A stretch of 37,323 nucleotides of DNA from a virus (taxonomy: Duplodnaviria; Caudoviricetes), in IMG/VR virus record IMGVR_UViG_3300032116_000607, positions 1 to 37,323 of that record; one strand, 5' to 3'. Shown piece by piece: positions 2,102-29,744 of the stretch. Numbering within the stretch: the first letter of the stretch is position 1; each line of letters opens with the position of its first letter. A program made the translations under genes and the position numbers. Under the pieces are notes generated by a model, which made no database searches, had not been told where the DNA came from, and saw only the letters and a list, made by a program, of their open reading frames with translations.

Positions 2102-2115
2102 CAAGGAGCAACACA

Positions 2116-2525: not shown

Positions 2526-2686
2526 TGAAAAGTAAGTCAGCACTATTCGCCAAAGGCACCGCACTACGTGCGCAGCTGGAAGCCAGAGGCTACGAAATCA
2601 TCGACGTGGATGTCGAAGTGCCAGACGAACTCAAAGGTATGAGCATGGCGCAGATATACGAGAAACTAAAGGAGCAAGACCAATGA
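2525..2686 (+). CDS. Hypothetical protein, 53 aa (MKSKS...)
   Basis: TGATG coupling and a GGAGG RBS favour ATG 2525 over 2504. Confidence 0.7.
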   Translation: MKSKSALFAKGTALRAQLEARGYEIIDVDVEVPDELKGMSMAQIYEKLKEQDQ

Positions 2687-5105: not shown

Positions 5106-5124
5106 CAATAACAAGGAGCATATC

Positions 5125-6198: not shown

Positions 6199-6380
6199 CC
6201 GAGGAGCTTCACGTCGTGGATGTGAAACGTGTGGTGCCTGTGTCGATATGGCAGGTCAATCTGTCCAACGGCAAAGTCATGCACGTTTCAGCCTTCGACC
6301 ACCCCGACGAGCTATCCGCGTACGTATACGCAACTAACAGACTAAAGGAGCAAGCTAATGGCACTAACAGCCGAGCGTAA
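6195..6380 (+). CDS. Hypothetical protein, 61 aa
   Basis: GTGA overlap with the AAA gene; fills the intergenic space. Confidence 0.55.
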   Translation: MTEELHVVDVKRVVPVSIWQVNLSNGKVMHVSAFDHPDELSAYVYATNRLKEQANGTNSRA

Positions 6381-7554
6381 ACTAAGTAAGGTCGTGATTG
6401 ACCTCATGCGCAACCCGTTGTTCGCAGACATGTCCGGTATCTTTATGATGGGCACGAAGCAGGTGAGCGACACGGTGCCAACTGCGCATACCAACGGGCG
6501 TGATGAGGTGTATGGGCGTGAGTTCATCGATGCGCTATCCATACAGGAGGTAGCTTTCGTCGTGGTGCACGAGTCATTCCACAAGATGTATCGCCACCTG
6601 ACTACGTGGAAGAAGCTGTGGGATGAAGACCCACGGCTAGCCAACATGGCCTGTGACTACGTCATTAACCTAGAGATTGTCACCCGTGACCCGAACCGCA
6701 CTGTGGTGTCTATGCCGCAGAAAGATGGCAAGCCCGTAGGTCTTATCGACCGCAGGTTCGCAGGTATGAACACCAAGCAGGTCTTCGATATGCTCAAGCA
6801 GGAGCAGGAAGAAGGCGATGGTGGCGGAGGCGGTGGTGATGGCGAAGGCATCGACCAGCATGACTGGGAAGGTGCGAACGACCTGACCAAAGAGGAGAAG
6901 GAAGAGCTGGTTAAGCAGGTAGACCAAGCCATACGGCAGGGGATGATTGCTGCACAGAAGATGCACGGCAAAGGTGCGGGCGGTATGTCGCGTGAGTTGA
7001 CCGACATCCTCGAGCCCAAGGTGGACTGGCGTGAGCAGCTACGTGAGTTCGTCAACGCCACGTGCGCTGGGCGTGACTACTCATCATGGCGCAAGCCTAG
7101 CCGGAGGTTTCTATCATCGGACATCATCATGCCGAGCCTTACGGGCGAGCGTGTGGGCAACATCATCATTGGCTGCGACACGTCTGGTTCAATCACCAAC
7201 GAGGACCACGCACGGAACCTGTCGGAGACTGACGCTATCTTATCCGTGGTTACGCCTGACAAGCTGCACATCATCTATTGGGACCACACGGTAGCTGCGC
7301 ATGAGATATACGACGACTCGACACGCGGTTCGTTCCGCACGTCTACCAAGCCCATGGGTGGTGGGGGTACAAACCCCGACGCTATGGAGGCATATCTCAA
7401 GCAGCACGATATCAAGGCTGACTGCATCATCATGTTCACAGATGGCTACGTGCCTAACTGGGGTTCGGACTGGAACGGCGCACCGATACTGTGGGTAATT
7501 ACAGGTGGTGGGCGGATGACCGCATCAACAGGCAAGACAATACATATCGACTAA
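6358..7554 (+). CDS. DUF2201-like metallopeptidase + VWA domain protein
   Basis: HESFH (HExxH), acidic/Gly linker, MIDAS-type DTSGS...GGGT...FTDG. Confidence 0.88.
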   Translation: MALTAERKLSKVVIDLMRNPLFADMSGIFMMGTKQVSDTVPTAHTNGRDEVYGREFIDALSIQEVAFVVVHESFHKMYRHLTTWKKLWDEDPRLANMACDYVINLEIVTRDPNRTVVSMPQKDGKPVGLIDRRFAGMNTKQVFDMLKQEQEEGDGGGGGGDGEGIDQHDWEGANDLTKEEKEELVKQVDQAIRQGMIAAQKMHGKGAGGMSRELTDILEPKVDWREQLREFVNATCAGRDYSSWRKPSRRFLSSDIIMPSLTGERVGNIIIGCDTSGSITNEDHARNLSETDAILSVVTPDKLHIIYWDHTVAAHEIYDDSTRGSFRTSTKPMGGGGTNPDAMEAYLKQHDIKADCIIMFTDGYVPNWGSDWNGAPILWVITGGGRMTASTGKTIHID

Positions 7555-7565
7555 GGAGCAAACCA

Positions 7566-8417: not shown

Positions 8418-8431
8418 GAAGGAGCATTACA

Positions 8432-9313
8432 ATGACACAGCAGAAAGTGAATTACCCGCTAGACGTGCACAATACATACTGGCCAAGCTACGACGACGCA
8501 GACTCACTAAGGCGCGCTGAGCGGTCCAAGGTGCATCCGTTCATGGCGCAGCTAATCGAGGCACTGCAAGTCAAGCGTCCAAACTGGGAGTTCGAGGCTT
8601 CTGGTTACGGCACTGTTAACCACAGCGGTGAGGTAAACGACATACTTCACTCATCCTTCGACATCTACGACAACGGGGAGAAGCTGGCCAGCATAGACAA
8701 GGAGTTCAAAGGCAACGGGCATGTGTATGCAGTTAAGAACCACCGTCTCGTTGCAGCGCGTGAGCGTGGGCTATGGACAAACCGTAAGAACCTCAAAGAC
8801 ATAACCGCAGTTATACTCAAGAACGTCTACCCACACACAGTCGCAGAGATAGCAGATGCCAAGTACAAGGCGAGCCATAGCTCCGCGCAGAGCGCCAGCT
8901 ACAGGGCTAGACAGCTTCACATCCGTGCGGTTGAGAGGCTGGCAGCGCCAGCGTTAGAGTTTCTATCATCGCAGTGGGACGCGTTTATGGCCGTCCCTAC
9001 GGGCAACCTCCATGTGGACGAAGCCAAAGAAAAGTTCTTTGAGCTACGTGATAACGCAGAAGCAGCCAAGGTGCTTGCAAACAGCCCACACTGGGTGGTG
9101 GTTGAGCGTCCACGAGACTTTATCGTGCAGCCGGTGGGTAAAGAAGCATACGCATGCAGTCTGGAGTCCATGCCTGACCAAGTGAAGATGGCGCTAGGTC
9201 TACTCAAGATGACTGAGAAGGACACGTTGATTAATGACATAGGTGTACGCACCGACGTGGACACTTTCTTTATTTTACACAACCCAGTTGACGTACCACC
9301 CGAAGAGGGATAA
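8432..9313 (+). CDS. Hypothetical phage protein, 293 aa
   Basis: Long ORF with GAAGGAGCAT RBS. Confidence 0.85.
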   Translation: MTQQKVNYPLDVHNTYWPSYDDADSLRRAERSKVHPFMAQLIEALQVKRPNWEFEASGYGTVNHSGEVNDILHSSFDIYDNGEKLASIDKEFKGNGHVYAVKNHRLVAARERGLWTNRKNLKDITAVILKNVYPHTVAEIADAKYKASHSSAQSASYRARQLHIRAVERLAAPALEFLSSQWDAFMAVPTGNLHVDEAKEKFFELRDNAEAAKVLANSPHWVVVERPRDFIVQPVGKEAYACSLESMPDQVKMALGLLKMTEKDTLINDIGVRTDVDTFFILHNPVDVPPEEG

Positions 9314-9338
9314 ACACTCATAAGAAGGAGCAAACAAC

Positions 9339-9641
9339 ATGGCGTCAACGCCAGAGAAAAGAGTCAAAGAAAAAATCGTCAAGGTGTTGAAGGAGGAAGG
9401 AGTTTACTACTTCTTCCCCGCCACCCATGGCTTTGGCCGCAGTGGCGTCCCTGACATAATATGCTGTGTGAACGGTTACTTCTTGGCCATCGAAGTCAAG
9501 GCAGGGACCAACAAGCCAACCGCCCTACAAGTGCGTGAGATTGAAACGATACGCCGGTCTAACGGCGTAGCCGTGGTAGCTAACGACGAGAACTGGGACA
9601 TGGTGCGCGGACTGGTGCACAAGTTGAAGGAGCAGGGGTGA
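9339..9641 (+). CDS. VRR-NUC family nuclease / Holliday junction resolvase-like
   Basis: PE...GVPDIICC...FLAIEVK...PTALQ motif. Confidence 0.88.
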   Translation: MASTPEKRVKEKIVKVLKEEGVYYFFPATHGFGRSGVPDIICCVNGYFLAIEVKAGTNKPTALQVREIETIRRSNGVAVVANDENWDMVRGLVHKLKEQG

Positions 9642-10237
9642 TGGATGTGGAAACCGACACCTGCAAGCAGATAGCCGCCCTAGCGGCTACGCATACCCAA
9701 CGCGAGATAGCTAAACTTGTCGGTATGAGTCGCACAGCGGTATGTAAAAGACTTGTACACATGGGGGTTCGCACACAGAACGCTAGAGGACGCAAGCGTT
9801 TACCTTCCGTGAAGGGTATATGTCCCGCATGCAAGGTAGAGTTTGCGTTAGACTCTAACCAGAGAGACCATATTAAAAAAGGGCAGCAGCCGTGTTGCAG
9901 CAAAGAGTGTTTACGTCAGCACAAAGTAAACTGGGCTACTAGTTACGAGAACTATAGGAGCGGGCCGGAGTCTAATCGCTGGAAACATGGCTACGCGAGT
10001 ATTGAAACACTTAAGAAGGTAATTAGTTATCTAGACGAGCACGGTAACGTGCCGGTTACTGAAATCCGTAATGCAGTAGGTGGATGTACTTATGCTACTG
10101 CGTCAAAGGCAAGGAGGGCGTTGGATATACCGTTACAAACAACCTTTAAGCATGGTTATTATTCCAATGTCGCCATAGAAGCGCGTGATACCATACGGAA
10201 AATCAACAAACTTATTAAAGAAGGAGCAAGAGCATGA
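9638..10237 (+). CDS. HTH + Cys-rich DNA-binding protein
   Basis: QREIAKLVGMSRTAVCKRL HTH; CPAC...CCSKEC; NRWKHG and FKHG motifs. Confidence 0.7.
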   Translation: MMDVETDTCKQIAALAATHTQREIAKLVGMSRTAVCKRLVHMGVRTQNARGRKRLPSVKGICPACKVEFALDSNQRDHIKKGQQPCCSKECLRQHKVNWATSYENYRSGPESNRWKHGYASIETLKKVISYLDEHGNVPVTEIRNAVGGCTYATASKARRALDIPLQTTFKHGYYSNVAIEARDTIRKINKLIKEGARA

Positions 10238-11217: not shown

Positions 11218-13037
11218 TGGACATCTTGAACATCGACTTCGAGACCTACTACGACCGCGCCTTCTCGCTCTCCAAGATGACGACGGAGGAGTATATCCGT
11301 GACCCGCAGTTCGAGACCATAGGCGTTGCCGTTAAGCGCAACGAAGAAGAGACTGTATGGTTCACCGGCACCAACGCGCAAACCAAGCGGTGGCTACAAC
11401 AGTGGGACTGGGATAACAGCATAGCTGTGGCTCATAACGCCATGTTCGACATGGCAATCCTTAACTGGCGTTACGACATTCGACCCAAGCGCATCGCAGA
11501 TACCCTGTCTATGCTCCGTGCTATTGATGGACCGCATGCTGGTAACAGCCTAGCCAGAGCAGTTGAGCGTTACGGTCTGGGCGAGAAGGGCGACGAGGTT
11601 ATCAACGCGCTAGGTAAGCGGCGACTGGACTTCACTGACGAGGACATGGCCCGTTATGGTGAGTACTGCATTAACGACGTAGAGCTGACGCAGAAGTTGT
11701 TTACTGTCTTGGCACCGCTCATGCCCGTGTCCGAGCTGCGTCTGATTGACCTGACTATCCGGATGTTCACCGAGCCGGTGCTGGTGTTGGATAAGAGTAT
11801 CTTGGCTGCGCATTTGGATAACGTACAAGCCAAGAAAGAAGAGCTTATGGCTAAGCTTAACTACGACAAGTCCGAGCTGATGAGTAACCCGAAGCTAGCG
11901 GAACTGTTGGAGTTTCATGGTGTGTCACCGCCCATGAAGGTGAGCGCCAAGACAGGTAAGGCAGCATTCGCCTTCGCCAAGAGTGATGAACTGTTCAAGG
12001 CACTGCTCGACCACCCCAATCCACAAGTGCAAGCCATCGTCGCTGCGCGGCTGGGCGTGAAGTCTACACTTGAGGAGACGCGGACCGAGCGGTTCGTAGC
12101 TATTGCTGACCGGGGACTACTACCAGTTCCACTACGCTACTACGCAGCACATACAGGCCGGTGGGGTGGCGACGACAAGGTCAACCTCCAGAACCTACCG
12201 CGCAAGTCACCGCTCAAGAAGTCTATGCGGGCACCAGAAGGCTATGTGTTTATCGACTGTGACTCGTCGCAAATCGAAGCGCGGACCTTGGCGTGGCTAG
12301 CTGGACAGAACGACTTGGTGGATGCCTTCGACAAAGGTGAGGACGTCTATAAGATTATGGCGTCGTCTATCTACGAAGTGCCTATTGATGACGTGACGGA
12401 TGACCAGCGGTTCGTGGGTAAGACCACCATCCTTGGTTGTGGCTACGGCATGGGAAGTAGTAAGTTCCAAGCGCAGCTTAAGACATTCGGTGTAGAGTTG
12501 GACTCAAAAACCTGCGCGCATATTGTGTACAAGTACAGGGACCAGTTTAGCCAGATACCGCTACTGTGGGAGCAAGGGGATAAGGCGTTAGAGGCGCTTA
12601 TGTCCACTAGGACCGCACAACTGGGTGAGCACGAAGCACTGCTAGTAGATATGTTCGGTATCAGGTTACCCAACGGTATGTACCTGCGGTACGATAACTT
12701 ACGCAAGGAGCCAGACAAGAAGTCGGGCCGGGACCAGTTCGTCTACGACGTCAAGAAGGGTCGGGCTACGCTACCTACGTACATATACGGCGGGAAGCTG
12801 ATTGAGAACGTGTGCCAAGCCTTGGCCCGTATCATTATCGGTGAGCAGATGCTGATGATTGCACGACGCTACCGTGTGGTGATGACCGTGCACGACGCCG
12901 TGGGGGTGATTGCCCCCATAGAAGAAGCTGACAAAGCCCGTGCGTTTGTTGAAGTCTGCATGCGCATGCGACCTAAGTGGGCCGCAGCGTTACCGTTGAA
13001 CTGTGAGAGCAAGATAGGAGCAAGTTATGGCGGATGA
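11217..13037 (+). CDS. polA: Family A DNA polymerase with 3'-5' exonuclease
   Basis: ExoI DFET, ExoII HNAMFD, ExoIII YCIND; motif A DSSQIEAR, motif B KTTILGCGYG, motif C VHDA; TGATG coupling gives start 11217. Confidence 0.96.
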   Translation: MDILNIDFETYYDRAFSLSKMTTEEYIRDPQFETIGVAVKRNEEETVWFTGTNAQTKRWLQQWDWDNSIAVAHNAMFDMAILNWRYDIRPKRIADTLSMLRAIDGPHAGNSLARAVERYGLGEKGDEVINALGKRRLDFTDEDMARYGEYCINDVELTQKLFTVLAPLMPVSELRLIDLTIRMFTEPVLVLDKSILAAHLDNVQAKKEELMAKLNYDKSELMSNPKLAELLEFHGVSPPMKVSAKTGKAAFAFAKSDELFKALLDHPNPQVQAIVAARLGVKSTLEETRTERFVAIADRGLLPVPLRYYAAHTGRWGGDDKVNLQNLPRKSPLKKSMRAPEGYVFIDCDSSQIEARTLAWLAGQNDLVDAFDKGEDVYKIMASSIYEVPIDDVTDDQRFVGKTTILGCGYGMGSSKFQAQLKTFGVELDSKTCAHIVYKYRDQFSQIPLLWEQGDKALEALMSTRTAQLGEHEALLVDMFGIRLPNGMYLRYDNLRKEPDKKSGRDQFVYDVKKGRATLPTYIYGGKLIENVCQALARIIIGEQMLMIARRYRVVMTVHDAVGVIAPIEEADKARAFVEVCMRMRPKWAAALPLNCESKIGASYGG

Positions 13038-13646: not shown

Positions 13647-13669
13647 CAACCAAAGAAGGAGTAAGTACC

Positions 13670-14206
13670 ATGAACGTTATGTCTAAAATACGTCCGAACA
13701 CTCGTAAGGAAGAAGTTTTCAATACGCTGGGGCTGCACCCTAACAGCACAACTAAAGAGCTAGCTGCCCTTATGCCCCACCACGCGATAGGCGACATATC
13801 GCATGCGATAAGTTCGATGGCGGGTAAGAACCTAGTATTCGTGACAGGCAAAAAGCGCGAGGAGGGTCCATCGGGTCGGATTACGACGCACAGTGCGTAC
13901 TCCGTAAAGTACAAGAAGGTCGATAAAGATGCGGCACCACAACCAATCCCACGGCCTGAACTGTTTAATTCGCTTATCGAGACGCTGGAAACAGAGATTG
14001 CCGTGCTGACGCAGTGGAAAGAAGCTGCACTACTTCGCTATCCAGACTTAGAAGTAGACCCACTGGTGTTGGAAGCACGGGCACTACTGGCTGCGGAAGC
14101 GGAAGCGCAGGGCAGCATAGCGGCCTCACAAGCTTATATTACCGGTAATAGGGACCACACTGTAGCAGTTCAGGCTTTGGTTAAGGCGTTAGGAGCTAAG
14201 AAATGA
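13670..14206 (+). CDS. Putative winged-HTH protein
   Basis: TTKELAALMP...ISHAISSM...LVFV pattern; AAGGAG RBS. Confidence 0.6.
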   Translation: MNVMSKIRPNTRKEEVFNTLGLHPNSTTKELAALMPHHAIGDISHAISSMAGKNLVFVTGKKREEGPSGRITTHSAYSVKYKKVDKDAAPQPIPRPELFNSLIETLETEIAVLTQWKEAALLRYPDLEVDPLVLEARALLAAEAEAQGSIAASQAYITGNRDHTVAVQALVKALGAKK

Positions 14207-14961
14207 CTGAGGAGAAACGACCGAGCCTGATGATTGCCACCCCCATGTACGGGGGCATGTGCACAGGGCACTATGTGCAAGGTCTACTTATGACCATGAA
14301 CAAGATGCGCGAACTGGGTGTCAACGTGGCATGGTGCCAGATTATGAACGAGAGCCTTATCACACGGGCACGTAATGAACTGGCACGGGTGTTCCTTGAG
14401 AGCGACCATGACTACCTCATGTTCATCGACGCTGACATTGGCTTTGATGCAGAGGCCATCGCGCACCTCATGCTGGCCGACAAGGACATCGCATGCGGCA
14501 TCTACCCGAAGAAGGAAGTGAACTGGGATAGCGTCAACCGCGCTGCCCTTGAAGGTAAGACGGACCTTGCAAACCACGCCGGAGCATTCGTGTTCAACAT
14601 GGTAGGTGGAGCCAATGTGGAGACCGACGAGACAGGCTGCATCGAAGTGCGGCATGGCGGCACAGGCTTCATGCTAATCAAGCGTGGTGTTTTCGAGGCA
14701 CTTGTGCCTCATGTACCAACCTACCGCGTGTCGTCGTTCCAAAACCCAGAGACGGGTGAGTACGACAAGCCGTTGACCCATGAGTTTTTCGCTACCAGCA
14801 TCGACGAGACCGGTGCACTGCTAAGCGAAGATTACCATTTTTGTGAACTGTGGCGCAACCACGGTGGCAAAATACACGCCCACCCGTTCATCAAGCTACA
14901 TCATGTAGGCACGTATGTGTTTGGTGGTGACATCTTGCAGAGCGGCGGCAATCTAAAGTGA
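14203..14961 (+). CDS. GT-A fold glycosyltransferase-like protein
   Basis: IATPMYGG, ITRARN, FIDADI (DxD), GTGFMLI, LSEDY. Confidence 0.85.
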   Translation: MTEEKRPSLMIATPMYGGMCTGHYVQGLLMTMNKMRELGVNVAWCQIMNESLITRARNELARVFLESDHDYLMFIDADIGFDAEAIAHLMLADKDIACGIYPKKEVNWDSVNRAALEGKTDLANHAGAFVFNMVGGANVETDETGCIEVRHGGTGFMLIKRGVFEALVPHVPTYRVSSFQNPETGEYDKPLTHEFFATSIDETGALLSEDYHFCELWRNHGGKIHAHPFIKLHHVGTYVFGGDILQSGGNLK

Positions 14962-14974
14962 AGGAGCAAATGAA

Positions 14975-15457
14975 ATGAGTATGAGAAAGAAAGTCATAGC
15001 AGGGAACGTTATAAAGCTGCTTAAGCAGGGCTATTCGCCCAAGGAAGTTACCCAGCGTATGGCGGTAAGCTACAACTACGCATGGAAGTTGAAGAAAGAT
15101 TTAGAGAAAGCGGCGAAAGAAGCCGTAGCTGAAGTCAAAGAATGGGTCGAAGAGAAAGTCGAACCCAAACCCGAACCCGAAGTCAGTGGGGTGGGTAAGG
15201 TGCTAGACGCAAGGGCGGAACAATATGGTTCGTTCATGCAGTCTTCGGATACGGTTATCAGGATTAAGAGCATTCTACACAATGTGGTGGCTCGTAACGA
15301 AGTGCTCCTATACCCTGACCAGCTACAGGCGTTGGATATGATTGCGACCAAGATAAGTCGCATCGTGCATGGCAACCCAAACCACCTAGATAGCTGGATT
15401 GATATAGCCGGATATGCTACGTTAGTGGCCGACCGTCTCCAAGGGAAAATCAGATAA
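14975..15457 (+). CDS. HTH + DUF6378-like domain protein
   Basis: RAEQYG...KISRI...DSWIDIAGYATL; N-terminal HTH-like segment. Confidence 0.75.
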   Translation: MSMRKKVIAGNVIKLLKQGYSPKEVTQRMAVSYNYAWKLKKDLEKAAKEAVAEVKEWVEEKVEPKPEPEVSGVGKVLDARAEQYGSFMQSSDTVIRIKSILHNVVARNEVLLYPDQLQALDMIATKISRIVHGNPNHLDSWIDIAGYATLVADRLQGKIR

Positions 15458-16130: not shown

Positions 16131-16408
16131 TGGCAAGGGATTACAAAGCCGAGTACGATAAATACCACGCTCGCCCAGAGCAGAAGAAGAACCGTGCTTC
16201 GCGCAATGCGGCCCGTGCCAAGATGACTAAAGCCGGTAAGGTGCACAAGGGCGATGGTAAAGACGTTGCCCACGTAAAAGCATTCGACAAAGGTGGTTCC
16301 AATAAGACGGGACTGCGTGTAGAAAGTAAGGCCGCTAATCGGTCGTTCCTCCGTGATAAGAAGGGTAACCTCGTGTCGGAGCGCAGCAAACGGGAACGCA
16401 AGAAGTAA
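16130..16408 (+). CDS. Small basic HNH-like protein
   Basis: GDGKDVAHVK...GGSN...LRVES...NRS; TGATG coupling. Confidence 0.7.
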   Translation: MARDYKAEYDKYHARPEQKKNRASRNAARAKMTKAGKVHKGDGKDVAHVKAFDKGGSNKTGLRVESKAANRSFLRDKKGNLVSERSKRERKK

Positions 16409-16424
16409 CCACGAAGGAGCAATC

Positions 16425-17971: not shown

Positions 17972-18001
17972 TTTGACACTGTCAAAGATTAGTGGTAGCT
18001 A
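17972..18001 (+). promoter_or_regulatory. Putative promoter with a palindrome over the -35
   Basis: TTGACA(17973)-N17-TAGCTA with extended TG; TTTGACA-C-TGTCAAA perfect inverted repeat. Confidence 0.7.
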
Positions 18002-18044
18002 ACAATATAACAAACCACAATCACAACCAAGAAGGAGCAAGCAT

Positions 18045-19623: not shown

Positions 19624-19686
19624 CGGAGCAGGGAGCATTTTCTTTTAGAAGTGGGCTTGTGAGTTGCCCTATGGAGTAGTGTCTGC

Positions 19687-22521
19687 GTGGCGGAGGAATT
19701 TGACCTTTTATCAGCGGTGCAGCCTCAAGAGGGTTGGTACGCTATCGTCGGGCTTAGCCCAGACAATAAACAGCAGGAGTTAGTAGAGACCCGCGAGGAA
19801 GCGGACGAATGGGCAAAGACCTTCCTCAACCAAGGTAAGAACGTATTCTTTGGTGTAGCTAAGTACACAGACGGTAAGAGCCGCAAGAAAGAGAACGTGA
19901 AGGCGCTTAAGTCGCTCTGGCTCGACATAGACTGCGGACCAGAGAAGGATTACGATACACAGGACGAAGGCTTCACGGCTCTTCGTGCGTTCTGTAAGAC
20001 CGTAGGTATGCCCAAGCCTATCGTGGTTAACTCGGGGCGCGGTTTGCACGTATACTGGCCGCTAACTGAAGAAGTTACACGCGAAGAATGGGAGCCAGTG
20101 TGCGCACGGTTGAAAGAAGTCTGCGCCACCAAGGGGCTACGTGTAGATAACAGCTGCTTTGAGGCAGCGCGCATCCTGCGTATTCCCGGCACTTTTAACT
20201 TTAAGGGTGATGACCCACTGCGCGTAGAGGTTCTGGTGGTCGGCAAGCCGACGTCCATGGCAGACATACGTGACATACTTGGCGTTAAAGAGACTAAGCC
20301 GTCGCCCCTAGGCGACCTTCCGGTGTTCGCACCTAGCCCGTTATCCAAAGTCATACAGGCTAGCATGGAGTCCAGCTTCGCCAAGATTATGAACCGTGGG
20401 GACAAAGGCTGCGCACAGCTTAACTCCTGTTACGAGGACCGCGAGCATATATCCGAGCCACGTTGGTTCTCGGCGTTGTCAATCGCAAAGTTCTGTAAGG
20501 ACCGTAATAGGGCGATACACAAGCTATCTGCAGACCATCCGGACTACGACCCTGACAAGGTTGAGCAGAAGATAGGACACATACTCGGGCCGCACACCTG
20601 CGCAGAGTTCGAGAAGAACAATCCCGGCGGATGCGGAAAGTGTCCACACGCTGGCAAGATACGCTCACCTATTACGCTAGGCAAAGAGCTGAAGGAGGCA
20701 ACTCCGGAGGACAACGTAGTCATAGAAGAGACGAAGCTGGGGGCGATAAAGTTCCACATACCCGAGTTTCCCTTCCCCTACGTGCGTGGCAAGCATGGGG
20801 GCGTATGGCGCAAGGTTGCGCCCAAGGACGAGGAAGAAGGCGTCGAAGACGTTGCGCTTGTGTATCCGTACGACATCTACGTGGCCAAGCGGATGGATGA
20901 CCCTGTTGAGGGTGGCGTAGCCCTTATCCGACTGCACACACCGCAGGACGGCGTCAAAGAGTTCACGGTGCACAATTCCAAGATGGCGGACGGCACCGAG
21001 CTGAAGAAGCTTCTCGCTTCTAAGCACGTGATGTTGAGTTCGAAGACCGACTACGCATATCTAGTCGATTACATAGTTAAATCAGTGGCACAGTTTTTTC
21101 ATAACGAGAAGGTAGAGCAAATGCGAAATCAATTTGGATGGGTCGATAACGACAGTAAGTTTATCATTGGCGACCGTGAGATAAGTGCGGAGGGGACGTA
21201 CCATAGTCCACCATCTTCCGTTACCAAGGTAGTAGCGGAGCACATGACAGCTAAGGGCACACTGGATAAGTGGCGCGAAGTGTTCGACCTGTACGGACGT
21301 CCGGGCCTTGAGGGGCATGCGTTTGCAGCAGCCACCGCCTTCGGTGCGCCTCTCTTGCGCTTCTCCGGCCAGCGTGGGGCGATTATCAACGTGGTGCACC
21401 CTAAGTCGGGCACGGGTAAGACGACAGCCCTACAGATGGCTAACAGCGTGTATGGTGACCCTGTGGCGCTATGCGCGAAGAAGGACGACACGTTCAACTC
21501 GAAGGTGTTCAAGATAGGCGTGTTCTGCAACCTGCATATCAGCTTCGACGAAATGTCCAACACTGAACCTAAGCAGTTGAGTGAGCTTGCCTACCTGATT
21601 ACACAGGGCACCGGCAAGGACCGCATGAAGGCGTCCGCCAACGAGCTTCGGGCAAACCTGACGTCGTGGCAGACCATAGCACTGTGCTCGTCTAACCACT
21701 CGTTCTACGAGAAGCTGGAAATCAATAAGGGTTCGCCTGATGGTGAAACCATGCGCATCATCGAGTACAGCATCGACTATTCTGACGCGATTGACATCGA
21801 GTATGGCAAGAAGATGTTCGACCACCAGCTGCTCGAGAACTACGGGCATGCAGGTGACATCTACGCACGGTACCTGATTACGCACTATGATGAGGTGAAG
21901 GCGCTCTATGCTACGGTCCAACAGCGCATCGACACCAAGCTTAAGCTAACACAGCGTGAGCGTTTCTGGTCGGCAACAGCGGCTGCTAACATAACGGGCA
22001 TCTACATTGCCCTACATCTGGGCCTATGTAACTGGGACATTGCTGCCATTTTCAAGTGGACGTGCAAGATGGTGCTCAACCTACGCAACACCATGACCCC
22101 ACCGCCTGAAGGCGACCAGCAGATACTGGGTGAGTTTATGAACGCCCGTCTCGGGAACATTCTTATCGTCAACGACGGGGTAGACCGTCGCAGCAAGATG
22201 GCGGAAGTACCGGCACTAGAACCAAAGCAGGAGCTTATGATACGCTACGAGCCTGACACAGCTAAGGTGTACATAACTGCTAGCTCGTTCCGTGAGTATT
22301 GTGGTGCACGTAACATTGCTTACCGCTCTACGATTAACGCTATGAAGGCCAAGGGCCTGTACCTCGACGCGGAAAACAAGCGCATGTCCAAGGGCATGAA
22401 AGTCAACACGGTGCCAGTGCAGTCGCTAATCTTCGACGCTAACCACCCAGACTTCAGCGGCATTACGGACCTGTTTAATAACGTAGTGTCTGCCGCGAAG
22501 CCGGACTCCGACGAAGAGTGA
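19687..22521 (+). CDS. Primase-helicase (AEP/RepB-like primase + DUF927/SF3-type helicase)
   Basis: LWLDID, SGRGLHVYW, RILRIPG; Cys cluster HTC...CGKC; Walker A SGTGKTT and Walker B ISFDE. Confidence 0.9.
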   Translation: MAEEFDLLSAVQPQEGWYAIVGLSPDNKQQELVETREEADEWAKTFLNQGKNVFFGVAKYTDGKSRKKENVKALKSLWLDIDCGPEKDYDTQDEGFTALRAFCKTVGMPKPIVVNSGRGLHVYWPLTEEVTREEWEPVCARLKEVCATKGLRVDNSCFEAARILRIPGTFNFKGDDPLRVEVLVVGKPTSMADIRDILGVKETKPSPLGDLPVFAPSPLSKVIQASMESSFAKIMNRGDKGCAQLNSCYEDREHISEPRWFSALSIAKFCKDRNRAIHKLSADHPDYDPDKVEQKIGHILGPHTCAEFEKNNPGGCGKCPHAGKIRSPITLGKELKEATPEDNVVIEETKLGAIKFHIPEFPFPYVRGKHGGVWRKVAPKDEEEGVEDVALVYPYDIYVAKRMDDPVEGGVALIRLHTPQDGVKEFTVHNSKMADGTELKKLLASKHVMLSSKTDYAYLVDYIVKSVAQFFHNEKVEQMRNQFGWVDNDSKFIIGDREISAEGTYHSPPSSVTKVVAEHMTAKGTLDKWREVFDLYGRPGLEGHAFAAATAFGAPLLRFSGQRGAIINVVHPKSGTGKTTALQMANSVYGDPVALCAKKDDTFNSKVFKIGVFCNLHISFDEMSNTEPKQLSELAYLITQGTGKDRMKASANELRANLTSWQTIALCSSNHSFYEKLEINKGSPDGETMRIIEYSIDYSDAIDIEYGKKMFDHQLLENYGHAGDIYARYLITHYDEVKALYATVQQRIDTKLKLTQRERFWSATAAANITGIYIALHLGLCNWDIAAIFKWTCKMVLNLRNTMTPPPEGDQQILGEFMNARLGNILIVNDGVDRRSKMAEVPALEPKQELMIRYEPDTAKVYITASSFREYCGARNIAYRSTINAMKAKGLYLDAENKRMSKGMKVNTVPVQSLIFDANHPDFSGITDLFNNVVSAAKPDSDEE

Positions 22522-22718
22522 AGGTAGCTGGAGTCAGCTACGATATAAACTGGCGCGCCTTTACCAAGGGCGCGTCACTCTTTTTCCCGTGCCTCGACCC
22601 TAAAGCCGCCAAGCGCGAGATACGCCCTGTGCTACGCAGACTGAAGCTAAAAGTGGTGTACCGCAGCGTCGTGGACACCAAATCTGGTATTAGGGGTTTA
22701 CGCATCTGGCGAATATGA
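22518..22718 (+). CDS. Small basic protein, 66 aa
   Basis: GTGA overlap; GASLFFPC...GLRIWRI. Confidence 0.75.
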   Translation: MKVAGVSYDINWRAFTKGASLFFPCLDPKAAKREIRPVLRRLKLKVVYRSVVDTKSGIRGLRIWRI

Positions 22719-22730
22719 CTATGCATGACA

Positions 22731-22798
22731 CCGGAAGATGCTCCTTCCGTTTGGTTGATACTACCCCCGCTGGCGCTACTCCCCGGCGGGGGTTTTTT
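22731..22798 (+). ncRNA. Candidate anti-Shine-Dalgarno small RNA
   Basis: Hairpin CGGAAG-ATGCTC-CTTCCG contains TGCTCCTT, the complement of the AAGGAGCA RBS. Possible promoter TTTACG-N17-TATGCA (22697-22725). Ends in a terminator. Confidence 0.55.
22763..22798 (+). terminator. Rho-independent terminator of the + arm
   Basis: ACCCCCGCTGG-cgctactcc-CCGGCGGGGGT stem followed by a T-run, at the convergence point of the arms. Confidence 0.9.
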
Positions 22799-25700
22799 AT
22801 GGGCGGAACATCTCCGCCATGCCGATGTCTTTCCCAGCAGTCTTCTTCTCAAGCCGCATACCCTGCACAGTGCGCTCCCGAACATCTGCACGACCCTTGA
22901 GTGACCGCATGATGCTCTCTTCGGTAATAATAAAGCTAGGGTCTGGATACGTGCGGTTGAATGGAATAATCTCGTCAGTGATAAACTCTTGCAGCTGTGC
23001 CTTAGAGGTAATCTCACCCTCACGTATCTTCCTATCCAAAGTGGATAGCAGCTGGGTCTTTTCTGCTTTTATCTTCTTGTCGTTTTTACCGCGAGTAATG
23101 TAGTAGTCCTGCCAACGAGCAAGGCGTAGTGGGCGGAAGCCCGATATCGTGCGGAACGTATCGAGTGCAGAGATGTCGTCCTTATCAATGATAACGTCGC
23201 CCTTACGGCTAACAACGCCTTCAGCTTCTCCCTGCCCTGCAGCGACCCATGACCGGACAAACGCTGGGGCTAGCTTCTTTACGGCACCGTACATATCGCC
23301 TTCGGCAAAGTTGTCCTTCGCATTGAACGCCTGAATTAGCATCTGCCCACCTGCTACGTTAGCCAGCAGTGTTTTTATTACGGTGTCCCCAGTAGAGTCG
23401 CCTGTGACAGCTTCACGGAACCACATATTCTTGAGGTCAAGCGACGTACGGCTAGATATTTCTGTGTTCGACAAAGCGCCAACTGGACCGTGTATAAGAA
23501 TATCGGCCATCGACACGTCGCCAATCATAGGCTCACCGAACTTGTCCATTATCCATGCACGGAACATGATGTCGGAGTCGTAGGCGACACGCGGGTCGAG
23601 ACCCATAAGCTTGCGCACGTCCTCATCGTCTTCTTCATCAAAGCTCTCGGACAGCGCCAATGCCATGACCGTGTATAGAGGCATGCCGAGAAGGCCACCG
23701 AATACGCCAGCCATCATCAACACGCCGCCTAGCTCCTTCATAGCGCCAGCACGTGCAGCTTTTGCTTCTGGTGAAGCTCCGGGGTACAGCCCACGACCGA
23801 TATCCCGCATCGCCCCCACTAGGAACTTGGTCTGCAGGATAGGGTGCATCTTGAAGAGGAACAGGGCACGGGTCCAGTCTTTCTTCATAATGCTAGACCG
23901 CTCCCAGTTGGAGTAGTCGCCTAGTGTGTCCCGCACTGTGTCTAGCGCAGTTGTAACGGCCTTATCGAACACTACCTTTTCGGCTTCGGCGCTAGTATCA
24001 GTATTCTTCGCCGCCTCTGCCTTGTACGCCAACTCAAACGCCATGAAGTAGGCCGCTTGACGCGAGATGTTTTCCAGACCTTGGAACATAACACCCATGG
24101 CCTTACCAGTTAAGGCACGTGCCTCAACAGCGGTGCGCGCCGCACCCGTACGGTGCCTCTTAGCCGTTTCCCGCTCATTCTGTATTAGAGTATCCTGCAC
24201 GGTCTCAAGCACGTTGCGCTCCATGCCTGCCGCCAGTGCCCTACGTAAAAGCTTACCCTCGTCAGTATTGGCGTTAATTAGCTTCGAGCTATTGATATTG
24301 GGCATCAGCACATCGAGCTGGTCACCAGCACCGGCCAGACCAGTGCGCGTAGTCTGCACCTTGGCTTTACCCAGTGTGTTCCATATCTTCATATACTTCA
24401 GCCACATACGTGTGCCTTCTGCATACCCGTAGTCACGCCACAGGCGCGGCACCACACGTATCGGTATGGAAGTAAGCTGCAGCATGGCTGTCGCTGGCGC
24501 TGTCAGGTAGTAGAAGTATGACGCACGGTTAAGGGCGTTTATAAACGAACTCTGCGGGCTTGGATTTATCTCGTCCTCGGCCCGTGTTTCAAGCTCGTCT
24601 ATAACCGAGTTATACTTCGCCTTGAGCGTTGCATCGCGGTCAGATACGTTATCCCGGGCTTCCTCGGTCTTCAGGCGAATGTCCCCGGCATAGGCCAGCT
24701 TGCTTAGCTGGTTAGCATAGTTACTAGCTTGCGACGCGAACTGCTGCAGCAAGTCCTGCTGGAAGCCGACTACCTCTTGAGCATGCATGAACCGGCGGCG
24801 CACTGACCGTTCTGGCGTAGATAGCAACCATGTCTGGTAGATACTGTCCGTAAGGTCTTTGAAACTATTAGCGTCGATACCCTTGGTGCCCGCAAACTCA
24901 GCCTTAGCCTTGCTAACTAGGTCGAATATCTTCTGCATCATTTGGTCGTCAGACTTCATGTTCTCCTGCAGCTGCGCGATATCGTACCCTACGGTTATTA
25001 CACTGCTGTCTTCGGGGTTCACACCTAAGCGCTTAGCTATCGCCTTCTGCGCGTCCTGCATGTCCTTAGCGGAGTAGAGCTGGTAGAACTCCCGCTCCCG
25101 CGAGCCGTCCTTGGCAGCTGCTACACGCACGTAGTACTGGCCTTCGCGCATGAACGGGAAATAGTCTTTGGTGAACAGGCTGGAGTCGAGGTCGTGGAAT
25201 ATATCTCCGCTCTTCTTAGCCTCATCCGGGTTCATCACTTCGCGCATCATGTCTGCACGTAGGTCGCGCAGGCGCTTAGCTTCTGCCTCACCAGCAATAG
25301 TCGAAATGCGACCATCTAGTAGGGCAAGCTCTGCTTCGAACATGTCTTTGTAGTAGGCGCGCATCTCAAGGTACAGCTTGTGGCCATTCTTGAGTTTACC
25401 CAACTCATCCCACAGCTTGTGCACGTCACGGATACGACGGGTAAGTTCTGCAACCTGCCCAGTCTGGGCGCTAGTCTTCTGGCGGTCGATAGCAGTCTTA
25501 GATAGGTCCGCTACAAGCTTACGCATGTCGTCAGACATTTTTACCTTGTCGCCCTTTACCCCTACTACTTCCTTACCCTGCATAGTCAGAGCCTTCATCT
25601 CGGCTATTATGCGGGCGGCTAGCGCTTTGTCGTTTGAGTTCTTCAGTATGCGGGCTTCGATTTCCTTCATCGCAGGGTGATTAGCCAGCGCCTCATCAGC

Positions 25701-28700
25701 AGACTTGAACTCGTCAGGGGAGTACTCGTTTATACGGGCAGTGCTCTGCAGTGATGCCAGCACTTGCTTTTTGTCTGTCAGAAGAAACTCATCCAGCTCA
25801 CGACCTATATCTTCGGCGGCTTTGATAATGTTGGCCTTCATAGCCACCATCTTCTGCACCAGCGTGTCAATCTCACGTATGCTAGGTATGTCTGGGCCAA
25901 ACCAGTTTAGGATGCCAGACGTTGGTATAGTCTTCAGTATAGCCTTTAGCGTAGGTGGACCCATACCGTCGGAGTTGTCTTTGAACGCATTAAGGAAGGC
26001 GCTGAACTTACGCCCCTGCACAGCTTTCCCTACACCGTCAGCTATGCCGTTAGTGGACGTAGACTTCTGCGTGCGGCGCAGACCATCGCTCATGGAGGCC
26101 GACGTTTCTTCCAGCGCTTCTTTATGCTCAGGGGTGGTCTTAGGCCGGGAGTATTTTGTAGCGCGTGATGTGGTGGTGTCCCACCCACTGATATACCGCA
26201 TACCCTTTACGAGCGTGCTTTCCTGTGGGCCGTTTACGACGCGCTCGTGACCTGCGGCCAGTATAGCCTCTACATCCGCATCGCTGATTGCTAGGCTGAT
26301 ACCCAGCTTACGTGCAAAGTTACGGATAATAGCCGCAATACGGCTAAGCATATTTGGCCGGATTTGTCCGGTCTCGGACATTTCAGCTAGGACTTCTTCT
26401 ACTGCACGGGCGACCCGGTCAGTGTCTTTTGCATATGCCTCTGGGTTAGCAGCTAGCCAAGCATCAGTCTTGGTCCGTATGTTGCCATTGCCTTTGTATA
26501 GCGCGGTCAAAGCGCCGTCTAGTTCGCCACGGAACAGCTTCTCAAGGCCAACGTGACCAAGGGCTTCATGGAACAGCACCGCCTTAGCACGCTCTACGGA
26601 CTCAAGGTTGTCGGCAATCAGATACACTGTGCCGTCAGGAGCCACGAAGCCTTCTGCATTAGTGGCGTTGTCCTGCATCACAGCCCGGCGTATCTTAGCG
26701 TCAGCTATGTCGTTAACTGACTGTACCACTTCAACTACGGGTGGACCTTTCCACACCGACACGATAGCATCTACCGCTGCGCGGGCCTTTGACACGTCGG
26801 TCTTGGCTTGGCCCGGCTGCGTTTCACCCCTACGGTACTTCGACACACGGCTTTCAGCTAGGTCGATTTTAGCATCGCGTAGCTCCTTTTGGTCACCTTC
26901 CTGCAACGCTTCCTTAATGCGTATCTTGGCACCAAGCTGCTCGTCCTTGCGCATCTCTGACATGGAACGTAGCCGCGACCGGATTGGGTTCAGCATGCGA
27001 TTGTTTACGAGCTTAGCCAGCTTCTCGTTGGCGACCACCAACTCTGCTTCCGCTGCCTTGGCTTCAACGCCTGTGGTGTTGCGGAACTTGGACATTGCTG
27101 CCCGTGCTTCTTCTTCAGCCTTGGCGATGTTGTCCTGTGGGCGACCGAACTTGTCGTACGCAGCGGGACGCTCCAGCTGGCGGATAAGCTCTGTACGCTG
27201 GTTGTTGTCTATCTCGCCACGCTCACGCGCAGCATCAATCTCTGCAGTAAGCTCTTGCACCATCGACGTAGCTACAGTGGGTTTTGCGGAGTCCGTATCT
27301 GGTATAGCCGCAGCGGGAGCAACGTATGGCATGAGGTCCATAGCCTGCTCTTCGAAGTCCTTCAGGGTATCTGCAGCTGCAAACACCTCACCGTCTGGAC
27401 CGACAACCCTATATGGCTTCGGGCTAGTCTCATCAACCTGCACACTATACGCTTCGTTAGCAGGGTTAGCACGACGTATGGCGTCCTCAATGTTCTTTAC
27501 GAACTGGGCCTTGTACTGCTCGTCCTTGGCTGCGCGCTCTTGCTGCAGCCTATCAAACTCGTCGGCCTGCGCCTGACGCTCGGCTTCACGCTGCTCCGGT
27601 GCGAGCGCACCCTGCTCCAGCTTGCGCTGCTGGATTTCCTCGAACTTGTCGAGGCGGTTTTCTTCCTGTGTAGGCAGTGCACCAAACAGACCTTCTTGGC
27701 CTGCGGCTTCCACAGTGCTGGCACTGGGTGGACGTCCCCTACGCGAGTATTTGATACCCGTGGGGGAAGCTGCTGCTGCGTTTAGGCGGTCAACGGCTTC
27801 CGCTTCGTCAATTCCGTATTTGTCAGCAAATGCACGGACGCCATCGTCGTTTTGCAGGGTAGCCTCAGCAAATGCTGGCGTAATAGTGGGCGCAGCGGAA
27901 CGCGCAGGTGCAGCTTCTGCTTTTGGTGGGGGAGTATAGTCAAACCGACTAACGGCATTACGTATGCGGTCGATGGTATATTCAGGTTTATCCTTCTTAC
28001 TGATGTCTAACCCTAGACCACGTGCAATCGCGTTTATCCTAGGCGTATTAAAAGGCACACCACCAGCATCAACTGCAGAGACAAGGTCAATAGCAGACTG
28101 CTCTATAGGAGATAGCTTACGGCGCTGTGGCGCAGCTTCTGCTTTTGGTGCAGCCTGCTCAGCAAACAACGGCTCAATAGTAGAAACTTCGTTACCAACA
28201 AACTGCGAGAACGCAGCCATGCGCTCGGGTGCAATAACCTTGTCGATGCCGGTGGTCTTCATGGCGTCAACGTATTGACGCGCTATGCTCTCTACGAGTG
28301 GTGCCGGTGCTACCTGCCCCTTATCAACAAACGCAGTGTACTCATCTATCTGAGTATTTATGTCTGGTATGGTGCTAGCAGGCTCGACTCCAGCAGCTTC
28401 AGCCTCACGCGCCTGCTGCATGGCGGCTTGCTCTTCGGTGTCAACCGGAGGCAGTGTGGAAAGGTCAGGACCTCCGCCAACATCAATATCTTCTTGGGCT
28501 AGCCGTTCGGCACGTGCTTTTTCAAGTTCTGCAGCTTGCTTATCAATAGCGGCCTTCTGCTTCACCATGGTGTCTACAACCTGCTGGGCTTTCTCCAGCG
28601 GGAACCCGCGCCTAGTGAACCGCTCAACTGCAGCGGACACGGCTTCTTCAGTCGGCTCTGGCGGCAGAGCTTCAAGCTCTTGTGCAATCTCTTTCGTGAG

Positions 28701-29744
28701 CATCTCACGGTTTTCCGCACGCGTTTCACGCGCACCACCGTAGCCACCTAGGAATAGGGACGCGATGCCTTCAGACGCGGCCTGACCGGCTACACCCTTC
28801 CACGTATCTACATCGAAGCCTTCGCGCTGCAACGCTAGGTTCTGGGCCAACTGTTCTTGCCCACCTTGTACAGCTTCCGGTACAGCTTCCGTTACCGCAC
28901 CTTTAGCGGCTCCGCCTAATACACTGCGCCTTGCGCCGACTTCTACGGCTTCACGCGCTGCCACCTTAGCGGCAACATTCTTAGCGGCGTTTGCACCTAT
29001 GGTACGGGCAATCTGTGGAGCAAAACCAGTAGCCGAAGCGAGCGCGCCTATTGCACCACCAAGTGCAATCTGGTCCATATTCTTGCCGCCGTACTCCTGC
29101 GCCCGCTCAGCTGCGGCTTCGGCGTCTTTCTCAGACGCACCGCTCTTTACAAACTCGTCGTATACGGCGTCGTACACAGCACCTTTTATGGTACCCACGC
29201 CTGACGCCGTGCCAAGCCCGGCCATAGTAGCTATAGGCACAACTCCGGTACCGCCAGTGGCAACACCTGCGGCGACAAAAGGCACTGCTGAACCTGCTAC
29301 GCTAGCAATGTTTTCCAAAGGTGCATAAGTGAACGCACGAGCAGCAGCCTTAACTTCTTCCCACACGCCCTTACCTTCGGCGTCCTTCTGGATTTTGCGG
29401 GCAATTTCTAAATCTTCACGAGACCCAGCAGATTTCAAGGCGGCGGCGGCTTTAGACACGTAATCAGCTGCATCGGACACAGCATTATCAGCACCAAAGA
29501 CATCTGAGATAGACTTAACTGTACCGCTTAAACCTTCGGCTACACTCAAAGGTATGTCTGCAACAGGCGCAATCAACCCGCCGACTAGCGGGATTTTCTC
29601 AATAGAGCTAGCACCCTGCTTGGACTTACCACCTTGGTAGTACTCTTTGGCGATATATGATATAGCATCGCGCTCGGTGGCATTCTTCGGAGCGTTGACA
29701 GTGTAGCTCCTGCCGTCCGGGCCTTTTACAGTGTATGAAGGCAC
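22797..29744 (-). CDS. Large polyvalent internal virion/ejection protein, 2315 aa
   Basis: Gly/Ala hydrophobic N-region, zincin-like HEALGH (26553-26570), YFPFMREGQY (PLxRFG-like) and a long helical C-terminus; AGGAG RBS with GTG start. Confidence 0.85.
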   Translation of the reverse strand: MPSYTVKGPDGRSYTVNAPKNATERDAISYIAKEYYQGGKSKQGASSIEKIPLVGGLIAPVADIPLSVAEGLSGTVKSISDVFGADNAVSDAADYVSKAAAALKSAGSREDLEIARKIQKDAEGKGVWEEVKAAARAFTYAPLENIASVAGSAVPFVAAGVATGGTGVVPIATMAGLGTASGVGTIKGAVYDAVYDEFVKSGASEKDAEAAAERAQEYGGKNMDQIALGGAIGALASATGFAPQIARTIGANAAKNVAAKVAAREAVEVGARRSVLGGAAKGAVTEAVPEAVQGGQEQLAQNLALQREGFDVDTWKGVAGQAASEGIASLFLGGYGGARETRAENREMLTKEIAQELEALPPEPTEEAVSAAVERFTRRGFPLEKAQQVVDTMVKQKAAIDKQAAELEKARAERLAQEDIDVGGGPDLSTLPPVDTEEQAAMQQAREAEAAGVEPASTIPDINTQIDEYTAFVDKGQVAPAPLVESIARQYVDAMKTTGIDKVIAPERMAAFSQFVGNEVSTIEPLFAEQAAPKAEAAPQRRKLSPIEQSAIDLVSAVDAGGVPFNTPRINAIARGLGLDISKKDKPEYTIDRIRNAVSRFDYTPPPKAEAAPARSAAPTITPAFAEATLQNDDGVRAFADKYGIDEAEAVDRLNAAAASPTGIKYSRRGRPPSASTVEAAGQEGLFGALPTQEENRLDKFEEIQQRKLEQGALAPEQREAERQAQADEFDRLQQERAAKDEQYKAQFVKNIEDAIRRANPANEAYSVQVDETSPKPYRVVGPDGEVFAAADTLKDFEEQAMDLMPYVAPAAAIPDTDSAKPTVATSMVQELTAEIDAARERGEIDNNQRTELIRQLERPAAYDKFGRPQDNIAKAEEEARAAMSKFRNTTGVEAKAAEAELVVANEKLAKLVNNRMLNPIRSRLRSMSEMRKDEQLGAKIRIKEALQEGDQKELRDAKIDLAESRVSKYRRGETQPGQAKTDVSKARAAVDAIVSVWKGPPVVEVVQSVNDIADAKIRRAVMQDNATNAEGFVAPDGTVYLIADNLESVERAKAVLFHEALGHVGLEKLFRGELDGALTALYKGNGNIRTKTDAWLAANPEAYAKDTDRVARAVEEVLAEMSETGQIRPNMLSRIAAIIRNFARKLGISLAISDADVEAILAAGHERVVNGPQESTLVKGMRYISGWDTTTSRATKYSRPKTTPEHKEALEETSASMSDGLRRTQKSTSTNGIADGVGKAVQGRKFSAFLNAFKDNSDGMGPPTLKAILKTIPTSGILNWFGPDIPSIREIDTLVQKMVAMKANIIKAAEDIGRELDEFLLTDKKQVLASLQSTARINEYSPDEFKSADEALANHPAMKEIEARILKNSNDKALAARIIAEMKALTMQGKEVVGVKGDKVKMSDDMRKLVADLSKTAIDRQKTSAQTGQVAELTRRIRDVHKLWDELGKLKNGHKLYLEMRAYYKDMFEAELALLDGRISTIAGEAEAKRLRDLRADMMREVMNPDEAKKSGDIFHDLDSSLFTKDYFPFMREGQYYVRVAAAKDGSREREFYQLYSAKDMQDAQKAIAKRLGVNPEDSSVITVGYDIAQLQENMKSDDQMMQKIFDLVSKAKAEFAGTKGIDANSFKDLTDSIYQTWLLSTPERSVRRRFMHAQEVVGFQQDLLQQFASQASNYANQLSKLAYAGDIRLKTEEARDNVSDRDATLKAKYNSVIDELETRAEDEINPSPQSSFINALNRASYFYYLTAPATAMLQLTSIPIRVVPRLWRDYGYAEGTRMWLKYMKIWNTLGKAKVQTTRTGLAGAGDQLDVLMPNINSSKLINANTDEGKLLRRALAAGMERNVLETVQDTLIQNERETAKRHRTGAARTAVEARALTGKAMGVMFQGLENISRQAAYFMAFELAYKAEAAKNTDTSAEAEKVVFDKAVTTALDTVRDTLGDYSNWERSSIMKKDWTRALFLFKMHPILQTKFLVGAMRDIGRGLYPGASPEAKAARAGAMKELGGVLMMAGVFGGLLGMPLYTVMALALSESFDEEDDEDVRKLMGLDPRVAYDSDIMFRAWIMDKFGEPMIGDVSMADILIHGPVGALSNTEISSRTSLDLKNMWFREAVTGDSTGDTVIKTLLANVAGGQMLIQAFNAKDNFAEGDMYGAVKKLAPAFVRSWVAAGQGEAEGVVSRKGDVIIDKDDISALDTFRTISGFRPLRLARWQDYYITRGKNDKKIKAEKTQLLSTLDRKIREGEITSKAQLQEFITDEIIPFNRTYPDPSFIITEESIMRSLKGRADVRERTVQGMRLEKKTAGKDIGMAEMFRP

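Follow-up and report, generated by a model that had tools for sequence, protein, structure and literature searches.

A conserved junction element in uncultured tailed phages, predicted to encode a small RNA complementary to a tag on early ribosome-binding sites

In the literature consulted, each phage small RNA (sRNA) targets either one mRNA of the phage or the host, and the available part of one account calls their role in lytic phages less obvious (PMC8244752). The c4 RNA of P1/P7 and Sar of P22 pair at or near a phage ribosome-binding site (RBS) and block translation, in each case of one antirepressor mRNA of a temperate phage (PMC12197685, available text). In T4 early mRNAs are inactivated through their Shine-Dalgarno (SD) sequences and late mRNAs are spared, the agent being RegB, a protein nuclease (PMC3014915; PMC1702504; available sections). 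Outside phages, the cuckoo/alpha-r14 sRNAs of Alphaproteobacteria (RF02344) consist of short adjacent hairpins with variable, compensated stems and an anti-SD in the loop, and the accessible text describes 2-4 such hairpins side by side, each with CCUCCUCCC in its loop (PMC4615179).

The DNA analysed here, called the window throughout, is a 37-kb (37,323-nucleotide) piece of the genome of an uncultured tailed phage. Its + strand arm (442-22718) encodes an ATPase, a DUF2201 protein, a nuclease, a DNA polymerase, an exonuclease, a helicase and a primase, and meets a - strand arm of virion-type genes, the last of which encodes a 2315-aa DarB-like protein with its stop codon at 22797. The reading favoured here, held with reasonable rather than strong confidence, is that a unit at this junction is the predicted source of a trans-acting sRNA, transcribed from its own promoter, which likely provides delayed feedback by blocking the translation of early genes. 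The junction and the primase leader contain the following features.

19673..19679, + strand: primase SD region GGAGTAG, candidate target of the terminator loop (best of 33 window starts)
19687..22521, + strand: primase/helicase, 944 aa (PHROGs)
22518..22718, + strand: conserved 66-aa ORF whose last codons contain the predicted promoter (93 homologues)
22697..22702, + strand: predicted -35 box TTTACG, within Gly-Leu-Arg codons of the 66-aa ORF
22720..22725, + strand: predicted -10 box TATGCA (hexamer starts TA in 84/85 relatives)
22731..22798, + strand: predicted sRNA of ~68 nt (59-81 nt, median 67, in 79 distinct relatives)
22732..22749, + strand: hairpin 1, loop AUGCUC, compensated stem (folding, relatives)
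22739..22746, + strand: seed UGCUCCUU, complement of AAGGAGCA (TGCTCCT invariant in 32 aligned rows)
22750..22763, + strand: single-stranded linker (UUUGGUUGAU...), which is predicted to act as a toehold for the AACCAA that precedes some SDs (folding; upstream-only cognate effect)
22764..22798, + strand: intrinsic terminator hairpin and T tract, the latter at 22793-22798 (folding, relatives)
22776..22782, + strand: terminator loop CUACUCC, exact complement of the primase SD region (a lead only)
22797..29744, - strand: DarB-like virion protein, 2315 aa, last gene of the converging late arm (phrog_10089)

Relatives were fetched through the 66-aa ORF, which gave 179 loci; 173 of these extend at least 100 nt beyond its stop and represent 117 distinct junctions. 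A scan with a 14-nt pattern for the element returned mostly chance loci and was set aside. Complete relatives are ~62-66 kb, and all come from uncultured phages. No close cultured relative was found in the phage collection by DNA match, by primase or by a match to the 66-aa ORF; the nearest cultured primases are 25-29% identical to that of the window, and two distant cultured relatives are without the element and, by eye, without a stereotyped tag on their RBSs. Three whole or partial phage contigs (L275, L276, L277) were binned into three unrelated MAGs and give no host. In the relative G002 the genes for terminase, portal and major head protein are encoded on the other strand from the 66-aa ORF, and strand was therefore taken as the early/late label. 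The late arm of G002 also carries a GroES-like co-chaperonin gene (L302:7278-7724) with portal and head genes on either side. The survey of targets covered 49 contigs and the window, with tails of up to 2.4 kb omitted from some, and after 7 near-duplicate genomes had been dropped 43 were compared.

Every coordinate and motif string given in a sequence-only reading of the window was reproduced, among them TGCTCCTT at 22739-22746 inside a hairpin at 22732-22749 and CAACCAAACGGAAGGAGCAT as the reverse complement of 22738-22757. Its two hairpins with AUGCUC exposed in loop 1 agree with the fold of the 68-nt stretch (z = -3.70, equalled by 0 of 200 shuffles), in which only AUGCUC is exposed, CUUCC is buried in the stem and opening costs ~8.8 kcal/mol. 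The - strand gene for the 2315-aa protein has its stop codon within the T tract of the terminator. The anti-SD core CTCCT was found in 115 of the 117 distinct junctions; L266 and L298, the sole two without it within 130 nt, have extra sequence after the 66-aa ORF. A hairpin rule that demanded G-C and A-U as closing pairs and a stem of 4 pairs or more, features which are not themselves evidence, was satisfied by 85 of the 93 junctions with a C-first seed. Among these 85, pair 3 is A-U in 67, G-C in 16 and other in 2, pair 4 is G-C in 63, A-U in 16, C-G in 4 and other in 2, and pair 5 is G-C in 84 and C-G in 1. RNAalifold on 16 hand-picked rows with 7-nt loops gave 5 pairs, none broken, with 7 and 6 double changes at two of them; on 25 mixed rows hairpin 1 was missed, the alignment having put the 6- and 7-nt loops out of step with each other. 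The seed remains constant while stems and terminator loops differ, at 45-100% primase identity. Inspection by eye places the anti-SD of the deepest clade in the linker, behind a different first hairpin. In five junctions (L212, L248, L271, L292, L296) the element is longer and includes either an extra hairpin or a second copy of CTCCT. The unit and its conservation are thus established at the level of sequence comparison.

The sequence-only reading had also placed a TTTACG/TATGCA promoter before hairpin 1. Both strings are present and the promoter is weak when the window is taken alone (7/12 consensus matches; absent from the sigma-70 scan list); it becomes credible because of the codon and spacing constraint in relatives. 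The Gly-Leu-Arg residues under the -35 box are invariant and their synonymous choices fixed, the Gly codon being GGT in 81/85 relatives vs 52/263 at other Gly positions of the gene and the Leu codon TTA in 77/85 vs 12/387 at other Leu positions. The spacer is 17 nt in 57, 16 in 24 and 18 in 4 of the 85, the -10 hexamer having been taken as the best of three spacers scored with a bonus for TA, and the hexamer ends 6-7 nt upstream of the stem in 72/85. TT and TA separated by 16-18 nt occur in 104/117 junctions, a generous count since placement was picked by score. At the other end a T run follows the terminator in 110 of 112 parsed cases, which results in part from the search rule, and an A run precedes its stem in 1 of 112, so that the polarity is +. 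A promoter and an intrinsic terminator are thus found on one strand by conservation, and they point to a + strand RNA starting at the foot of hairpin 1. The earlier idea of a discrete, self-promoted RNA gene is in this way backed by comparison of promoter codons, spacing and terminator, as a prediction. Eight public RNA runs were available as contigs and were uninformative as to a transcript, and three lake runs gave no match. The fall in depth from ~380 to 8 at the terminator in one public run is no evidence, the run being probably DNA and its contigs being without strand or end information.

It could instead be argued that the element has no promoter of its own and works as the 3' terminal part of the mRNA of the primase operon, either cut from it or pairing with it in cis. 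The element does terminate the early arm, and a match between the terminator loop and the primase SD on one transcript would act in cis. The promoter constraint and its fixed spacing to the stem, together with targets up to 20 kb away that lie upstream of a conserved internal promoter at 17973, make this very unlikely.

Folding does not choose the + strand, since at the stem end G-U vs A-C is 13 vs 19, and in 54 of 79 distinct relatives the better fold is that of the - strand; in the window the - strand of the 68-nt stretch folds equally well (z = -3.91). This favours what is the main rival for mechanism, in which the tag is read by a RegB-like nuclease or a RegA-like repressor, with the junction serving as a hairpin bound by protein or as a decoy on - strand late read-through RNA. 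T4 RegB cleaves GGAG in early SDs (PMC3014915, available sections), and read-through by late transcripts is plausible because the terminator has no U tract on the - strand. Such a mechanism would leave unexplained both a + strand promoter that is fixed by synonymous codon choice and ends 6-7 nt from the stem and the genome-specific complementarity upstream of the SD. No RegB- or RegA-like protein was found, none of the 44 window ORFs having a RegB-like nuclease as its PHROG name (the PHROG names being what was searched), and the adjacent 66-aa protein is without a clear match. This mechanism is regarded as distinctly improbable. A translated antisense ORF behind the - strand AAGGAGCA, which the sequence-only reading had named as a possible objection, was dropped: in 83 of 115 junctions the - strand SD is not followed by a start codon at a distance of 4-12 nt, and an ORF of at least 50 codons follows in 2. 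No late-type promoter signature was found, a point against an early-to-late timing. A late-arm promoter of the TTTACG type was considered and rejected, as its recurrent matches fall inside coding sequences.

The 66-aa ORF is, among the relatives compared, a real conserved gene that sits between primase and element in every fetched relative, the ORF having been the search query. The protein is basic and its model is confident (pLDDT 94), showing a small alpha/beta fold. It has no PHROG or Pfam match, and fold searches gave no E below 0.001 and a best Z of 4.6, i.e. no clear structural match; it is a candidate nucleic-acid-binding partner. A terminator-like hairpin lies within the ORF at window positions 22551-22577 (+).

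The sequence complementary to the seed is not randomly placed in the window. There are 13 copies of AAGGAGCA, 12 on the + strand and 1 on the - strand (the hairpin), compared with a mean of 1.3 and a maximum of 6 in 100 shuffles. All 12 + strand copies are 3-6 nt upstream of a start codon, which confirms the count and positions first reported, to which one AGGAGCA site that had been missing is added here. The three bipartite leaders, in which the match extends beyond the SD, were likewise recovered.

2103..2110, + strand: AAGGAGCA RBS of the gene at 2116
2669..2676, + strand: AAGGAGCA RBS of a 31-codon ORF at 2683 (2683-2778), below usual gene-calling limits
5113..5120, + strand: AAGGAGCA RBS of the ATPase (PHROGs)
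6345..6352, + strand: AAGGAGCA RBS of a metallopeptidase/VWA-like protein, DUF2201
7553..7560, + strand: AAGGAGCA RBS of the gene at 7566
8419..8426, + strand: AAGGAGCA RBS of the gene at 8432
9325..9332, + strand: AAGGAGCA RBS of a resolvase-like nuclease
9627..9634, + strand: AAGGAGCA RBS of the gene at 9638/9641
10221..10228, + strand: AAGGAGCA RBS of the gene at 10234
13016..13022, + strand: AGGAGCA RBS of the gene at 13027, the added site
13647..13663, + strand: bipartite leader of the gene at 13670, including one G-U pair; strongest predicted target (-15.2 kcal/mol)
14961..14968, + strand: AAGGAGCA RBS of the gene at 14975
16407..16421, + strand: bipartite leader of a SNF2-type helicase
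18024..18039, + strand: bipartite leader of a 133-aa gene

Start regions were ranked by pairing with accessibility on G001, which has the same junction as the window and a longer late arm. Early genes take all of the first 8 places among the predicted targets, and 33 early starts outrank 22 opposite-strand calls (p = 0.022), some of the opposite-strand ORFs being doubtful. Several tagged genes score just -4 to -6 kcal/mol. Two late AGGAGTA sites that had been suspected of weak pairing do pair poorly (-0.3 and -3.3 kcal/mol). A TTGACA promoter-like box occurs at window positions 17973-18000 (+), in the gap before the 133-aa gene, and in most relatives, with all three clades represented, a TTGACA/TTTACA...TA box lies ~4.7 kb before the junction.

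For the comparison across genomes a start site was defined as AGGAG followed by a start codon and an ORF of at least 45 codons. In the 26 genomes with the UGCUCCU (CA) seed, AGGAGCA is present at 195/327 early vs 3/215 late AGGAG starts, and the early rate is above the late in 26/26. The background at non-start AGGAG is 142/1293 and 90/808, or 11% on both strands. At 60% early, 1.4% late and 11% background, early starts are enriched and late starts depleted for the tag. The extension 3' of AGGAG is where the 16S tail would call for GU; as the tag is not GU, ribosome pairing is no explanation for it. The tag also changes with the seed. In the clade with the CU seed (AGGAGCU; 3 genomes) early starts have CT at 15/32 and CA at 0/32, and in that with the A seed (AGGAGA; 12 genomes) 84/127 early starts are A-first and 8/127 CA, with CA at 14/83 late starts. 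Orthologues of the 133-aa gene switch with the seed, with CAA in 20/23, CTA in 2/3 and A-first in 8/10. Some genomes do not fit, the early sites that match numbering 0/10 in G049, 0/4 in G042 and 2/8 in G038.

Duplex energies gave a similar picture, cognate duplexes being stronger at early than at late sites in 39/41 genomes and beating RNAs of other clades in 40/43; late-site avoidance is not visible in the energies (22/41 genomes). Within-clade permutations at early sites gave p = 3e-4 (26 genomes) and 0/20000 (12 genomes), and on the late arm were flat and not significant. A caveat that must be applied is that pooled p-values count shared ancestry repeatedly. The tree was a quick tree with three clades, on which the core seed/tag switch amounts to two deep events. 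Independent pairs were drawn on a primase clustering. The base 5' of the SD tracks the seed in 11 vs 2 of 14 such pairs (11/13 informative; p = 0.022). Neither hairpin 1 energies (16 vs 11 of 28) nor the +1/+2 seed bases (4 vs 2 of 7) were significant, and the +3 base showed no covariation. The complementarity of the conserved seed to initiation regions encoded elsewhere, the early enrichment, the late depletion and the clade-level switch are established by comparing the genomes, and the earlier claim of complementarity to early and not to late RBSs is upheld; the claim that seed and RBS co-vary in relatives stands at the level of clades and has partial support from independent pairs.

Two further explanations bear on these counts. 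The match might derive from shared ancestry and composition, with the junction merely a terminator region, and three of the four phylogenetically independent tests were indeed not significant; the invariance of the seed described above and the 60% vs 1.4% vs 11% contrast, with late-arm controls flat, leave this with very little probability. Equally slight is the probability that the RNA is aimed at host mRNAs as a generic anti-SD shut-off, the early tag having another cause. The CUCCU core would suit any AGGAG SD, and there is weak, sub-threshold Rfam likeness to ar14 and NsiR1, but early starts of the phage itself carry the match more often than the background rather than less often, and their sequence follows the seed.

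The terminator loop had been proposed as a second anti-SD. It is not a generic one, CTCC being present in 31 of 112 loops; where there is a match it is to the SD of the primase, whose start is without the tag. The match between loop and primase leader was better than in permuted pairs among 31 loci of <70% identity (p = 5e-5), two control stretches being not significant in the same permutation. The primase leader is in the top tenth of starts for this loop in 12/39 genomes, and the independent pairs gave 15 vs 11 of 26, which is not significant. As a lead, the primase SD may be the separate target of the terminator loop. The primase leaders vary in other respects: L248, L250, L256, L257 and L291 have a G/C hairpin and T run, terminator- or attenuator-like, directly upstream of the primase ATG, and in the A-seed clade (L246, L255, L258, L269, L272 and L273) the leader has a conserved TGACG(T/C) 12-20 nt before the start and is without an evident SD. 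A bolder and more tentative proposal, which is plausible and less probable than its negation, is of a two-headed sRNA in which head 1 recognises a co-evolved tag shared by a dozen early mRNAs and head 2 the primase SD, late genes avoiding the tag. It would be an RNA-only counterpart of RegB, with seed variants defining regulatory or exclusion groups.

On the favoured reading, a host sigma-70-type promoter would transcribe the ~68-nt + strand sRNA, and its loop AUGCUC on GAGCA and linker UUUGGUU on AACCAA would nucleate pairing. The stem would then melt (8.8 kcal/mol) and the duplex would cover the SD, so that the 30S site on tagged early mRNAs would be occluded and translation blocked. Build-up of the sRNA with time and genome copy number would be the source of delay, and the shut-off would hit the early arm late in infection, with tag-avoiding late mRNAs escaping. 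The terminator loop may bring in the untagged primase. The main rival for purpose is that the same RNA, with the same targets, silences the replication arm in a dormant or carrier state or excludes tag-sharing superinfecting relatives, as c4 does for P1/P7. The promoter resembles a host housekeeping promoter with no late-type signature, clade-specific seeds would yield immunity groups, and c4 both works at an RBS and determines P1/P7 heteroimmunity (PMC12197685, available text). A search for tyrosine integrases, the one class covered, found none in 5/5 complete genomes, no integrase or repressor match was obtained among the 44 ORFs of G002, and depletion of the tag at late starts suggests that the RNA and late mRNAs coexist. 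Dormancy or exclusion is thus unlikely, though to be taken seriously.

If the favoured reading is true, an sRNA seed co-evolving with a tag on many of a phage's own early RBSs would constitute a regulon-wide, RNA-based early shut-off, and would answer how a phage without an evident RNA polymerase of its own stops early translation. The natural seed variants (CA, CU, A) are ready-made swaps, and the seed/tag pair could serve as a compact orthogonal translation switch. No published description of the element was found. Fremin 2023 (PMC10690425) contains 8495 IMG/VR candidates; six motifs of the element had no match in the searchable part of its supplement, and a listing there is possible, as its alignments may contain the family without this interpretation.

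An Rfam search of the window gave only sub-threshold matches to NsiR1 and ar14. NsiR1 (RF02399), a cyanobacterial nitrogen-stress RNA of similar size and two-hairpin shape, was the best match (E = 0.16; 27.4 bits vs a gathering score of 39). The element resembles cuckoo/alpha-r14 in its short adjacent hairpins, anti-SD loop and variable compensated stems, and reaches 23 bits against RF02344, below the gathering score of 58.8. It lacks the repeated CCUCCUCCC loops, loop 1 being of (U/A)UGCUC type, UGCUC(CU), and loop 2 having CTCC in 31/112; unlike those sRNAs, as the available part of PMC4615179 presents them, it is phage-encoded and has matching tags on the phage's own early genes. The Rfam C4 model gave no match in the window up to E = 5, and no antirepressor or integrase match was found, many early genes being unnamed. 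The proposed RNA would resemble c4 and Sar in pairing at or near a phage RBS to block translation, and its sequence variants, as in c4-type systems, could set immunity (PMC12197685, available text). Where c4 and Sar act on one mRNA of a temperate phage, the element matches 13 window starts, in a family in which no tyrosine integrase was found. With RegB it would share the logic of inactivating early mRNAs through the SD and sparing late ones, the SD reader being in this case a predicted RNA, with no cleavage implied, rather than a protein nuclease (PMC3014915; PMC1702504; available sections).
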